Notes: a model not told the origin generated them from the letters alone. Shown: positions 1 through 10,243, counted from the first letter of the stretch. The stretch is 37,824 nt of DNA from an uncultured Gammaproteobacteria bacterium (GCA_964608895.1 CAZSPT010000001.1:16626-54449); one strand, 5' to 3'. Made by a program: numbers and translations.

Positions 1-1402
1 CCTGCCCGCCGTATTCTTCAGTCAAAGTATCCCAATCAATAATTTCAGAATTAAGATGGGCCTTGATTCTTATATTCCGCAACTCCTCCTGGCCGGTGTT
101 TTGATAATGGAGAGAATAAACCAAAAGCTCATCAAAAGCGATTGGCTGGTCCTCGGCCGAACCGTTAACAATCAAATCTAAGCCGAGCTGGTCTTTGATT
201 ACTTTAGTCACTAAAATTTCTTCGTTCTGGGGATAATAATCGCCGCCTTGGTTAAGCTGAATCCTTACTCTAAATTCCTGATTGCCTCCTTGGTCAACCG
301 CCGAATAACTGCCAGTGATTTCAACTTCACCGGATTCTTCCGGAGCAATACTTTTAATTTCCCAGAGAAAATCGCCGGCGGCGGCCAATTCCGGCTCAGC
401 CGAGCTAAAAACAAAACCGTCCGACGGCTCCGCGACCAATTGAAGATCAGTTAATTCTTCCTGACCGGTATTTTGATAACTGATGAGATAGCTTAACTCT
501 TGATTGGCCAGAGTTTTTTCCGGACCGCTGATTTCCAAATCCAAAACCGACGAGGCAACCGCGACATCAACAATTGCCTCCTGTTTAAACCGAGCATTCA
601 GGTTGGCCGGTTTGAATTCCAAGGTTCCTTTGAAAGTTTTAACCGAATTAATCGCCGCGATTGTCTTGCCGGTCAAAGTGATTTTCTTGGTTTCGCCGCT
701 TTTTAAAACACTGAAATCCCAGATATTTTGACGATCTCCCTTAGCGGCTGGCTCGGCTTGGAGATAAGAAAAATTTTCCGGGTAATCAAGCTCCAGCCGG
801 GCGTTGTAGAGATTTACCGCCTCTTGATTGGTGATTGAAACGACATATTCCGCCGGCTGCCCGGAAATCAAAGTAATCGGAGGAGAAATTTTTAAATCAA
901 TCTTTTCATTAGTAAAACTTTCTTCCCCCCAATAACGGTTAAATAGGAAAAACCCGGCCAAACCGGCAATCAACAAAACAGCAAAAACAATAATTAAAAA
1001 ATAAACAATTTTCTTCCAAAGCGGCTGACGGCTTTTGCTTAACTTGGTTAAATCGGGAATATGGCCGTTTCCGTCAGTATAAATTTCAGCGAGATTTCGC
1101 TGAATTTCCCGGCTGATTTTCCGATTAGACTTCTTTTTGCCGGCTTTTTTGAAAAAATTAGTGGATTTTCCTCCGGCCGAATCTGATTTTCCTCCGGCCG
1201 AATCTGATTTTCCGGCTTTATTATTAGAGGATGAAACCGCGGTTTCAGCGACATTATCCTGCATAGTTTTAACTTCTTTTTTAAAAATTCCAAAATCTCC
1301 AAGTTTCTTCTTGAGCGGTTTAACAACCGATTTTTTTTCTTTGGATTTTTTAGAACTATCGGAGTTATCTTTATTTTTTTTAAAAAAGCTGAACTTTACC
1401 AT
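1..1402 (-). CDS. Membrane-anchored surface protein with DUF11/CARDB-like repeat domains; the 3' end runs off the left edge
   Basis: The reverse frame is open from ATG (1402..1400) to the window edge: 467 codons with no stop. I read it by hand because the ORF track lists only closed ORFs. The N-terminus is Lys/Ser-rich (MVKFSFFKKNKDNSDSSKKSKEKK...). One TM helix follows (IVYFLIIVFAVLLIAGLAGFFLF). At least 3 modules of about 120 aa carry a DUF11/CARDB-type signature (AEYVVSITNQEAVNLYNARLELDYPENF; LSYLISYQNTGQEELTDLQLVAEPSDGF; LVYSLHYQNTGQEELRNIRIKAHL). The gene starts 11 nt after the DUF4012 stop. Confidence 0.75.
   Translation of the reverse strand, partial: MVKFSFFKKNKDNSDSSKKSKEKKSVVKPLKKKLGDFGIFKKEVKTMQDNVAETAVSSSNNKAGKSDSAGGKSDSAGGKSTNFFKKAGKKKSNRKISREIQRNLAEIYTDGNGHIPDLTKLSKSRQPLWKKIVYFLIIVFAVLLIAGLAGFFLFNRYWGEESFTNEKIDLKISPPITLISGQPAEYVVSITNQEAVNLYNARLELDYPENFSYLQAEPAAKGDRQNIWDFSVLKSGETKKITLTGKTIAAINSVKTFKGTLEFKPANLNARFKQEAIVDVAVASSVLDLEISGPEKTLANQELSYLISYQNTGQEELTDLQLVAEPSDGFVFSSAEPELAAAGDFLWEIKSIAPEESGEVEITGSYSAVDQGGNQEFRVRIQLNQGGDYYPQNEEILVTKVIKDQLGLDLIVNGSAEDQPIAFDELLVYSLHYQNTGQEELRNIRIKAHLNSEIIDWDTLTEEYGGQ
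1164..1216 (-). repeat. In-frame 21-bp tandem repeat inside the edge gene
   Basis: The unit gattttcctccggccgaatct occurs twice back to back, followed by a partial third copy. On the minus strand it encodes KSDSAGG-KSDSAGG in the cytoplasmic Lys/Ser-rich tail. Confidence 0.85.
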
Positions 1403-1413
1403 GAAAATTTCTA

Positions 1414-8766: not shown

Positions 8767-8842
8767 TTATCCTCCTTTCTCAACAACCTTCAAAAAAACT
8801 CGTTATTACCTTATCAAACCCTAACTTAAAAAACAAATTTTT

Positions 8843-10243
8843 TCAAGCTTTAGTTTTTTTAAAAATCGCCAAAGGAGTCTTCAGCAGTATCATTAAATCA
8901 AGCTTGGGACTCCAGTTTTCCATATACCAAGTATCAAGTCTTATCTCCTCCTCAAAATCCAAATCAGCCCGGCCGGAAACCTGAGCCATCCCGGTCATCC
9001 CCGGCTTAATTGTCAAAACTTTCTGGTGGTGGCTTTGGTATTTTTCAACTTCTTCAATTTCATGGGGGCGAGGGCCGACCAAACTCATTCGCCCGATTAA
9101 AACATTAAAAAGCTCGGGAAGCTCATCAACGCTGAAACGCCGGAGTAATTGGCCGACCGGAGTCACTCTGGGATCGTTTTGAAACTTCATCATTGGACCG
9201 TCTTTCCTTAAATTAGAATGTTTTTTAAGAAATTCTTGGTTAAACCGATATTGATGAGCGTCTTTAATCATTGAACGAAATTTGAAATACCGGAACGGCC
9301 GGCCGAATTGACCGATCCGGCGATAACTGAAAAAAAGCGACCCCGGGGAGCTAAGTTTAACCGCCAAAGCGGCTAAAATCATCACCGGAGAGGTCAAAAT
9401 AATAAAAATCAAAGAGAAAAAAATATCAAAAATCCGTTTACAGACCCGGCCCCAACCATCCAGGGAAGTTTTTTGAAGCTCAACAATCGGCAGGCCGTCA
9501 ATAGTGTTGATTTTAAAATTATTAATTGGAAAATCAAAAATATCGGCAATAAATTTCAAAATAACATGGTTGACATAGGAAAAATCATTCAACCGATTAA
9601 CCTGGGAGGCCGAAAGATTCGGAGTGACCACTAAAATTTCATCAAATTTGTCTTTTTGCTTTAACTTAACCAGCTCTTCTTCAACTTTCCGGCTAAAATC
9701 GTCAAAATTTTTAACCAAGCGGTAGCCGGCCCGGCGATTCTTCTTAAAAACTTCCCCGACTTCCCGGGCGAGCTCGCCCCGGCCAATAATAATCACCCGA
9801 TGCACCCCCAAACCAAACCGGTAGCAAAAACGCTGAAAAAACCTGACCACCCCCCGGCCGAAAATTACCAAGACAACGCTCAAAACCCAGGCGGCGATAA
9901 CAATAAACCGAGAATCAAAAAGACTTCGGCTGAAAAAGAAAACAAACATTAGAATCATCACCGCTGTTGAGCATCCAAGAACGATTTTCGCCATCTCGTC
10001 AATCCCCCGCCGAGTTCCTTTCATTGAATACAAGCCGGCCAAAACAAAACCAGCCGGCCAGATCAAAGCGACCGGCCAGAGAAAATTTAAAAACTCCGCA
10101 AATCTCAAATCAAAGACAACCGGCCGAATCTGCTGAACAAAACTCAAATAACGCAAAGAGTAAGCAAAAATCCCAGCCAAAACGACCATTAAATAATCAA
10201 CAAAAATTAAACTGATTGAAACGGCTATTTCTGATTTTTTCAT
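8843..10243 (-). CDS. Polyprenyl-phosphate glycosyl-1-phosphate transferase, WbaP/EpsB-type large sugar transferase
   Basis: 466 aa. N-terminal multi-TM region, central Rossmann-like segment (VIIIGRGELAREV) and a C-terminal bacterial sugar transferase domain (LVGPRPHEIEEVEKY; KPGMTGMAQVSGR). Confidence 0.9.
   Translation of the reverse strand: MKKSEIAVSISLIFVDYLMVVLAGIFAYSLRYLSFVQQIRPVVFDLRFAEFLNFLWPVALIWPAGFVLAGLYSMKGTRRGIDEMAKIVLGCSTAVMILMFVFFFSRSLFDSRFIVIAAWVLSVVLVIFGRGVVRFFQRFCYRFGLGVHRVIIIGRGELAREVGEVFKKNRRAGYRLVKNFDDFSRKVEEELVKLKQKDKFDEILVVTPNLSASQVNRLNDFSYVNHVILKFIADIFDFPINNFKINTIDGLPIVELQKTSLDGWGRVCKRIFDIFFSLIFIILTSPVMILAALAVKLSSPGSLFFSYRRIGQFGRPFRYFKFRSMIKDAHQYRFNQEFLKKHSNLRKDGPMMKFQNDPRVTPVGQLLRRFSVDELPELFNVLIGRMSLVGPRPHEIEEVEKYQSHHQKVLTIKPGMTGMAQVSGRADLDFEEEIRLDTWYMENWSPKLDLMILLKTPLAIFKKTKA

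Follow-up and report, generated by a model that had tools for sequence, protein, structure and literature searches.

A conserved DUF4012-centered glycosyltransferase cassette in Patescibacteria and the predicted LCP-like fold of its core domain

The LytR-CpsA-Psr (LCP) phosphotransferases join glycopolymers to the cell wall or to proteins in Gram-positive bacteria. They are membrane enzymes composed of a transmembrane segment, an accessory domain, a catalytic domain, and an optional C-terminal domain (PMC7831098). They are the described proteins closest to the long DUF4012 protein that is the subject of this work, which is encoded together with glycosyltransferases and a DUF11-repeat protein in positions 1 to 10,243 of the window, the whole stretch of 37,824 nucleotides that was analyzed (contig C1, C1:16626-54449). 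The genome amounts to 722 kb in 58 contigs, with an estimated completeness of 95%, and C1 extends 16.6 kb leftward beyond the window start. The host is a bacterium of the Patescibacteria (Candidate Phyla Radiation, CPR), related records bearing ABY1-type lineage names (Falkow-, Kuenen-, Buchanan-, Uhr-, and Magasanikbacteria). "Uncultured Gammaproteobacteria bacterium," a title given to many contigs that are clearly patescibacterial (loci L089, L090, L092, and others), is apparently a mislabel in submissions of metagenome-assembled genomes.

With Cps2A of Streptococcus pneumoniae (2xxq, 3tep), TagT/U/V of Bacillus subtilis (6mpt, 6uf6, 6uf3), and LcpA of Staphylococcus aureus (6uex), the long DUF4012 protein shares the transmembrane anchor, an accessory region, an extracytoplasmic α/β core, and the optional C-terminal domain. 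Its gene lies in a glycan locus that begins with a polyprenyl-phosphate glycosylphosphotransferase (PGT), and its predicted core fold retrieves LCP structures only among the leading matches. In contrast to these enzymes, it has no detectable sequence similarity to the LCP family and a TM-score of ~0.5, carries a set of invariant Asn, Asp, Glu, Arg, and Lys residues in place of an evident Arg-rich site, adds a long helical stalk and two β-sandwich domains, and coexists with a canonical LCP protein in its class.

Other systems resemble the locus in gene arrangement. In capsule and O-antigen pathways of the Wzx/Wzy type, a WbaP/CpsE-type PGT with the same large domain architecture is likewise followed by GT4 enzymes, and this genome has Wzx-like and Wzy_C-like genes; here, however, the flippase and polymerase lie outside the locus, the locus shows neither a polysaccharide co-polymerase (PCP/Wzz) nor a tyrosine kinase, and the PGT falls below the WbaP and WcaJ cutoffs. 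In streptococcal cps loci, cpsA, which encodes an LCP protein, holds the position corresponding to that of the DUF4012 gene in Bifidobacterium longum 105-A. In the exopolysaccharide/capsular polysaccharide (EPS/CPS) cluster of the latter, a Wzx/Wzy-type polysaccharide locus, the DUF4012 gene (BL105A_0406) stands directly between the priming glycosylphosphotransferase (BL105A_0405) and wzz (BL105A_0407) and is annotated merely as an "auxiliary protein" (PMC5412050); its product is shorter (gene of 1730 bp, ~576 aa) and has no DUF11 partner. Finally, Actinomyces oris LcpA (5v8c), an LCP-fold membrane enzyme, glycosylates the surface protein encoded by the neighboring gene gspA (PMC6381275, PMC7831098). 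The adjacency of the genes is alike here, but GspA is attached by sortase through a signal at its C terminus, in contrast to the DUF11 protein, which is anchored by an N-terminal transmembrane segment and lacks an LPXTG motif, and its glycosylation is only hypothesized.

On the basis of the comparisons presented below, we judge it somewhat probable that the locus is a conserved, PGT-initiated surface-glycan operon, in which a divergent LCP-fold DUF4012 protein performs the last extracytoplasmic step together with a partner made of immunoglobulin (Ig)-like repeats.

A conserved cassette of glycosyltransferase, DUF4012, and DUF11 genes

The cassette comprises the following genes, in the order in which they are read:

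8843..10243, minus strand: large PGT of WbaP/CpsE architecture, 466 aa (Bac_transf, 211.6 bits; CoA_binding_3, 40 bits)
6605..7711, minus strand: GT4c, cytoplasmic GT-B glycosyltransferase without a transmembrane segment, 368 aa (Glycos_transf_1, 93 bits; Glyco_transf_4)
5491..6621, minus strand: GT4b glycosyltransferase, 376 aa (Glycos_transf_1, 103.9 bits; Glyco_transf_4)
4383..5507, minus strand: GT4a glycosyltransferase, 374 aa (Glycos_transf_1, 107.1 bits; Glyco_transf_4)
1414..4233, minus strand: long DUF4012 protein, 939 aa (DUF4012, 92.4 bits; Pfam gathering cutoff of PF13196, 28 bits)
2..1402, minus strand: DUF11/DUF7619 protein, aa 1-467 of ~710 (DUF11, 50.7 bits in two stretches; DUF7619, 37.4 bits)

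A previous reading of the DNA, made without database searches (the sequence-only reading), had named a priming transferase, a lipoprotein, three GT4 enzymes, a giant DUF4012 protein, and a DUF11-repeat protein on the minus strand of positions 1 to 10,243. Open reading frames (ORFs) and Pfam matches recover all of these genes at the positions that it gave, with the same spacers (11 nt from the DUF4012 stop to the DUF11 start and 149 nt from GT4a to DUF4012). Successive GT4 genes overlap by 17 nt (GT4c/GT4b and GT4b/GT4a), and these overlaps, together with the 11-nt gap between DUF4012 and DUF11, suggest translational coupling, which speaks for an operon. The WbaP-like architecture ascribed to the PGT is borne out by its Bac_transf domain, a CoA_binding_3-like domain, and an N-terminal bundle of four to five transmembrane segments (hydrophobic stretches at aa 8-26, 51-69, 87-105, 114-132, and 274-292). 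The PGT scores 384 bits against the EPS_sugtrans model TIGR03025 (cutoff, 295.55) but stays under the equivalog cutoffs for WbaP (TIGR03022, 297.6 versus 403 bits) and WcaJ (TIGR03023, 337.2 versus 410.75 bits). By these scores, the PGT has an architecture of the WbaP type but is assigned neither the specificity of WbaP (Gal-1-P) nor that of WcaJ (Glc-1-P).

Conservation was assessed in 20 relatives from many families of the class (close comparison of synteny), in 61 genomes at the level of the class, in 80 loci representing species, all taken from named records of Falkow-, Kuenen-, Buchanan-, Uhr-, Magasanik-, and Kerfeldbacteria (74 of them assessable for a downstream DUF11 gene and 72 for an upstream GT4a gene), and in 301 evenly chosen Patescibacteria genomes with 14 control genomes. 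The order PGT, GT4c, GT4b, GT4a, long DUF4012, DUF11 protein, often followed by tgt, is kept in 18 of the 20 relatives. At the level of species loci, a DUF11 homolog lies directly downstream of the long DUF4012 gene in 57 of 74 and GT4a directly upstream in 60 of 72, so that the linkage of DUF4012 to a DUF11 protein, the main claim of the sequence-only reading, holds. At three loci (L113, L143, and L144), PGT-GT4c-GT4b are inverted or moved while the trio GT4a-DUF4012-DUF11 is intact. The same reading had argued from two loci within 38 kb that DUF4012 is a recurring core component; this is now carried by its presence in 61/61 genomes at class level and in 236/301 genomes across the phylum (~78%), as opposed to 0/14 controls. 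Within the class, a genome nearly always has two paralogs, one long (~750 to 1000 aa) and one short (~660 aa). The PGT orthologs are 63 to 71% identical and occupy the same position in the relatives. Among the GT4 enzymes, GT4c is the best conserved (64 to 70% identity between family-level orthologs), with GT4b (45 to 57%) always adjoining it, and the family-level orthologs of GT4a are 48 to 53% identical.

The persistence of the trio through rearrangements in dozens of species bears on an alternative in which the DUF4012 and DUF11 proteins are structural parts of the envelope, such as surface-layer anchors, brought near glycosyltransferase genes by genome compaction only. Such a role would suit two proteins that each cross the membrane once, expose a large ectodomain, and carry a conserved motif on the cytoplasmic side, and DUF11 domains are known in surface proteins (TIGR01451 description). 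Yet, beyond the stability of the trio, both DUF4012 paralogs and the Bifidobacterium gene (PMC5412050) sit in glycan loci, and the predicted fold belongs to a family of glycopolymer transferases (see below), which makes this alternative very unlikely.

The DUF11 gene reaches the left edge of the window and is split there by a 10-N scaffold gap (C1:16616-16625, immediately left of window base 1). Left of the gap, its frame continues for ~237 aa to a stop at C1:15900, after which tgt follows. In the 20 relatives, the two halves are one unbroken gene, with ~2 to 8 codons between the regions that align to each half, so that the gap conceals only these few residues, and the intact orthologs, of 600 to 715 aa, lie directly 3' of the long DUF4012 gene. 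As the orthologs are unbroken, the protein should be ~710 aa long and the break an assembly artifact; extension to the left, which the sequence-only reading had named as a check on this edge frame, thus finds nothing but an assembly gap interrupting it. Gene callers would report two fragments, one of 467 or more aa and one of 222 to 248 aa.

The genome encodes no second DUF11 protein. This one begins with a Lys-rich cytoplasmic tail (aa 1-130, net charge +20), crosses the membrane at aa 135-153, and continues as an acidic ectodomain built from Ig-like repeats, with no C-terminal sorting signal. The tail contains a conserved motif, "L..IY.D..G..PD..KL" (aa 104-122; window 1090-1036, minus strand). 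With 42 to 59% identity between family-level orthologs, as against 38 to 46% for DUF4012, the DUF11 protein is conserved like the enzymes of the cassette, and by this measure it does not look like a fast-evolving adhesin.

Architecture of the long DUF4012 protein and the predicted fold of its core

Modeling with AlphaFold2 (AF2) and residue conservation drew on 51 homologs, both paralogs included, and tail motifs were sought in 101 orthologs. The long protein is divided as follows:

3394..4233, minus strand: aa 1-280, basic cytoplasmic N-terminal extension (K+R 0.21-0.23; net charge +24 and +11)
3337..3393, minus strand: aa 281-299, single conserved transmembrane segment, N-in/C-out (hydrophobicity 2.27; charge bias)
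2815..3336, minus strand: ~aa 300-473, the stalk, a bundle of long helices on the outer side of the membrane (AF2 model)
2107..2814, minus strand: aa 474-709, α/β core holding the Pfam DUF4012 domain (predicted LCP-like fold)
1414..2106, minus strand: aa 710-939 and stop, C-terminal β-sandwich domains (AF2, all-beta; predicted local distance difference test score, pLDDT, >90 for most)

The anchoring is of the LCP type, in that a single transmembrane segment lies on the N-terminal side (aa 281-299) and the charge bias places the core outside the cell; the ectodomain has a net charge of -6. A candidate second transmembrane segment (aa 182-200) was rejected, being unconserved and set in basic sequence on either side. 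The cytoplasmic extension carries its own motif, "SP...DL" (aa 83-89; 3987-3967, minus strand), which is 70 to 80% conserved. We also considered and dismissed a motif common to both cytoplasmic tails, as the conserved motif of the DUF4012 tail and that of the DUF11 tail are not convincingly the same. Either motif might serve as a docking site for a partner in the cytoplasm, for instance GT4a.

The model of aa 270-939 (pLDDT, 87.8; predicted template modeling score, pTM, 0.84) shows the transmembrane helix, the helix bundle, the α/β core, and the β-sandwich domains in succession. The stalk is made of helices H9-61, H65-96, H103-134, H141-166, and H176-209, mostly with pLDDT of 74 to 95. A Foldseek search with the whole model returned mostly β-sandwich matches (ribophorin I/OST chain E and the N-domain of M1 peptidases), with LCP proteins at an E value of ~3e-3; the ribophorin I and M1 matches probably map to the C-terminal β-sandwich domains of the model. 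Weak ChiC matches were seen in 4 of the 51 homologs. A DUF4012 profile run against PDB sequences gave only coiled-coil and helical-bundle noise, the helical-bundle proteins matching the stalk, and NCBIfam has no model for DUF4012.

The core was then modeled alone (aa 474-709; pLDDT, 84.6; pTM, 0.83). In a Foldseek search of the PDB with this model, ranks 1 to 28 are all LCP proteins, with E values from 7.9e-7 to 0.1, query TM-scores (TMq) of 0.37 to 0.53, and 213 to 261 aligned columns; the best match is 3pe5 (E = 7.9e-7; TMq, 0.53), and the alignments span nearly the whole domain. The structures retrieved include 3pe5, LytR (8qty), gbs0355, Cps2A, TagT/U/V, S. aureus LcpA, BrpA, and MsrR, with A. 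oris LcpA (5v8c) at rank 26, and the first non-LCP match follows at E = 0.1 with a TM-score of 0.19. Since the top 28 matches are exclusively LCP proteins, there is good evidence from the model that the DUF4012 core has an LCP-like fold. The place of the B. longum gene between priming transferase and wzz (PMC5412050) agrees with an LCP-like role, and so does the gene neighborhood of the short paralog: LCP enzymes were first found as MreB-associated proteins, and the MreB paralog that adjoins the short DUF4012 gene in 18 of the 20 relatives recalls the link between TagTUV and MreB (PMC7831098).

A number of observations weigh against our interpretation of the locus. The LCP model PF03816 matches neither the window protein nor any of the 51 homologs even at E ≤ 10, and hhalign comparison with a profile built from 21 CPR LCP proteins (default, local with mact 0.01, and global) gave probabilities of 0.2 to 1.1% and E values of 0.05 to 0.3. 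The core TM-scores are ~0.5, with root mean square deviations of 6 to 7 Å. The conserved basic residues of the core are only R486, R498, and K635, invariant Asp and Asn being many, so that an Arg-rich site like that of LCP proteins, in which an Arg cluster and an Asp bind the pyrophosphate-Mg2+ of the lipid-linked donor, is not evident. The canonical LCP role is filled without DUF4012, by the one LCP gene that each genome of the class carries. No flippase or polymerase gene lies within the cassette, and the pathway proposed below is assembled from predicted models and gene content.

A link at the level of sequence was accordingly dropped, as it fails in all modes of hhalign and in Pfam at E ≤ 10; what hhalign aligned was only a helix of 36 to 39 residues. 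Two look-alike blocks can be picked out by eye, both statistically unsupported: YLLVFQN..ELRxxGGFxGS...SLP in DUF4012 beside ILIIGIGG...GGSLADT...SLPRD in CPR LCP proteins, and VDGVIAVN..L..LL...GP beside YYAVVDF.GF..II..FGG. The canonical LCP protein of this genome (C10:2924-4483, plus strand; 519 aa; PF03816, 116 bits) has GIGGAHHQGG after the first strand, where the Pfam LCP consensus shows a motif of the GxDxR type, and retains the later PRD and RSRRQQ motifs. Going by these motifs, the CPR LCP proteins may themselves be atypical. The presence of a canonical LCP protein in every genome of the class makes DUF4012 an additional relative rather than a replacement.

Across the 51 sequences, N493, E496, R498, D529, D555, N557, N615, K635, D701, and N709 are invariant, and R486 and D511 are invariant or nearly so. 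This set of about ten polar residues suggests an active or ligand-binding site, poorer in Arg than those of LCP proteins; judged from these residues, the chemistry of the core may differ from that of LCP proteins, or the domain may only bind. The latter possibility leads to a second alternative, that DUF4012 is a nonenzymatic co-polymerase or scaffold comparable to Wzz/PCP or CpsC, with the core a degenerate binding module and the stalk and β-sandwich domains organizing chain length or the passage of glycan through the wall. A long extracytoplasmic helical bundle right after the transmembrane segment would suit such a protein, as would the lack of an obviously conserved Arg cluster and of sequence similarity to LCP proteins, the absence of a Wzz/PCP gene from the locus, and the canonical LCP protein present in all genomes of the class. 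The invariant polar and charged residues of the core are, however, typical of a catalytic or ligand-binding site, and in B. longum a DUF4012 gene coexists with wzz (PMC5412050); we regard this alternative as unlikely.

Proposed assembly of the glycan and its possible acceptors

In the pathway that we propose, the PGT would load a sugar-1-phosphate onto polyprenyl phosphate at the cytoplasmic face of the membrane, as expected of its family, and the three soluble GT4 enzymes would extend it to a short lipid-linked oligosaccharide, approximately a tetrasaccharide or one repeat unit. A flippase of the Wzx type, encoded at an unlinked site, would then export the glycan, and an unlinked Wzy_C-type protein may polymerize it. 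The genome does encode a Wzx-like Polysacc_synt protein (C41, 745 aa), two Wzy_C proteins (C22, 437 aa; C27, 495 aa), PMT_2, and MurJ; hence, the lipid-linked glycan can plausibly be flipped, and perhaps polymerized, by proteins encoded elsewhere. Outside the cell, the long DUF4012 protein is predicted to bind the polyprenyl-(pyro)phosphate-linked glycan and pass it to the final acceptor in the manner of LCP enzymes, and the N-terminally anchored DUF11 protein, given the linkage of the two genes, would be its dedicated, cotranscribed partner. The equivalent step in another, separate pathway, of the synthase/GT2 type and with its own dedicated MreB paralog, would fall to the short DUF4012 protein.

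The identity of the acceptor separates our interpretation from a further alternative, in which the locus is a protein glycosylation module whose LCP-fold DUF4012 protein moves the oligosaccharide made by the PGT and GT4 enzymes onto the adjacent DUF11 protein. Glycosylation or anchoring of the repeat protein, which the sequence-only reading had advanced as one possible function, gains a mechanistic precedent from the LCP-like core together with the glycosylation of the gspA product by A. oris LcpA, a genetically linked pair of LCP enzyme and substrate (PMC6381275, PMC7831098) whose enzyme is itself among the structural matches of the core (5v8c). The tight and conserved adjacency of the long DUF4012 and DUF11 genes and the DUF11 protein being the lone one in the genome point in the same direction, as does the separate canonical LCP protein, which is available for wall polymers. 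A DUF11 acceptor is thus favored by the tight linkage, the separate canonical LCP protein, and the A. oris precedent.

The properties of the DUF11 protein fit this alternative less well. The Ser/Thr-rich glycosylation region that the sequence-only reading had hoped to see is missing: the ectodomain (13 to 16% S+T) has neither such a region nor a linker region, and the lone Ser-rich stretch (aa 52-81) is cytoplasmic. Its degree of conservation relative to DUF4012 (42 to 59% against 38 to 46%) suits a part of a machine better than a decorated surface protein. Moreover, neither the short paralog nor the Gram-positive DUF4012 genes (PMC5412050) have a DUF11 partner, from which it follows that DUF4012 function in general cannot depend on a DUF11 protein. 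On balance, we regard the glycosylation of the DUF11 protein as rather unlikely. Considering the partnerless DUF4012 proteins, the high conservation of the DUF11 protein, and the absence of a Ser/Thr-rich region, we lean slightly toward the wall (peptidoglycan) as the acceptor in the surface-glycan operon proposed here, with the DUF11 protein as a scaffold or spacer.

More tentatively, and with a doubt at least as great as that attached to the glycosylation of the DUF11 protein, one may conceive of DUF4012 as a second branch of the LCP superfamily, unrecognizable by sequence and with a remodeled active site. In most Patescibacteria, the long form, with GT4a and the Ig-repeat protein, would then move a PGT-initiated glycan from the lipid carrier to that protein as a near-universal envelope machine, which would make LCP-type protein glycosylation a core process of the CPR envelope. 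A second glycan, under the guidance of the MreB paralog, would be handled likewise by the short form.

The second DUF4012 locus, neighboring genes, and implications for the family

The short DUF4012 gene belongs to a block consisting of a 500-aa membrane protein, two GT2 genes, DUF4012, the MreB paralog, a GT4 gene, and holB, the order of which is kept in 16 to 18 of the 20 relatives:

26762..28732, minus strand: short DUF4012 protein, 656 aa (DUF4012, 102.1 bits; one transmembrane segment at aa 31-49)
25702-26712, minus strand: second MreB paralog, directly downstream of the short DUF4012 gene in 18 of the 20 relatives and 75 to 87% identical across the class
14474-18776: canonical mreB-mreC-mreD-PBP2 operon, separate from the MreB paralog
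30555-32057, minus strand: 500-aa membrane protein with 5 hydrophobic segments, a QxxRW-like motif (QMRRW), and a TED-like motif (VTEDSR), 47 to 73% identical in relatives

The 500-aa protein has no significant match in Pfam, NCBIfam, or the PDB, and its motifs suggest a divergent, processive synthase of the GT2 type as its probable identity. Synthase-type pathways, with membrane GT2 enzymes bearing such QxxRW/TED-like motifs, initiate and polymerize without a PGT.

The sequence-only reading had proposed that the PGT supplies the initiating enzyme that the synthase locus lacks. In this form, the two loci would be one system, the PGT locus priming the second; both lie in one 38-kb window, ~25 kb apart here and within ~29 kb of each other in one relative (G010), and each has a DUF4012 paralog. 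On long contigs of four other relatives (G011, G013, G015, and G024), however, they are 126 to 202 kb apart, each keeps its internal synteny on its own, and the membrane GT2 motifs of the second locus belong to enzymes that need no PGT. As the proximity is not conserved, the proposal is without support; the loci are conserved separately, and a coupling of the two appears highly improbable.

Immediately beyond this block lie tandem paralogs of cofactor-independent phosphoglycerate mutase (iPGM), at 32144-33730 and 33837-35414 (both minus strand), beside enolase and PGK/TIM. Both copies are retained in relatives, which is unusual at a genome size of ~0.7 Mb.

Within the cassette region itself, the segment between PGT and GT4c stands apart:

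7712..8842, no strand assigned: insert with a lipoprotein-like ORF, a 41-aa ORF, and divergent promoter-like sites, absent from the conserved cassette
8284..8766, minus strand: lipoprotein-like ORF, 160 aa (signal peptide; lipobox-like motif LTAGC)
7957..8082, plus strand: 41-aa ORF

It also contains a promoter-like extended -10 site (7880-7908; 11/12 positions agree) and terminator-like hairpins at 8091-8119 (plus strand, after the 41-aa ORF) and 8188-8165 (minus strand, after the lipoprotein-like ORF). The 160-aa ORF has no Pfam or NCBIfam match, and a search covering ~120 related loci found no homolog of it or of the 41-aa ORF. From this, and from PGT directly abutting GT4c in relatives, it follows that 7712..8842 is a lineage-specific insert; the lipoprotein gene and its 572-bp spacer, which the sequence-only reading had counted into the locus, therefore fall outside the conserved cassette.

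On the other side of the PGT gene, between it and gyrB, a full-length bacterial class A RNase P RNA (10324-10721, plus strand; 174.8 bits) accounts for most of the seemingly "empty" interval. Some 4 kb left of the window, C1 encodes a polyprenyl-phosphate N-acetylhexosamine-1-phosphate transferase of the Glycos_transf_4 family (MraY/WecA/TagO type; L001 11548-12678, minus strand), a candidate either for MraY itself or for another priming enzyme, one that would start a wall-linkage unit.

The CPR/Patescibacteria make up a large share of bacterial diversity, and the building of their envelope is almost unexplored. DUF4012 has been singled out among the protein families common to the CPR and Gram-positive bacteria (PMC6744442), and the literature that we searched assigns no function to it. 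As far as the models go, the LCP idea for DUF4012 holds at the level of fold, and it fails at the level of sequence. The LCP-like predicted core, together with the linkage to GT4a and the Ig-repeat protein, gives a concrete, testable hypothesis for a family present in ~78% of the sampled Patescibacteria and in Gram-positive EPS loci, and one that is open to test in culturable hosts such as Bifidobacterium. Should an LCP-like activity be confirmed, DUF4012 might become of interest as a target for antibacterials, as LCP enzymes already are (PMC7831098).

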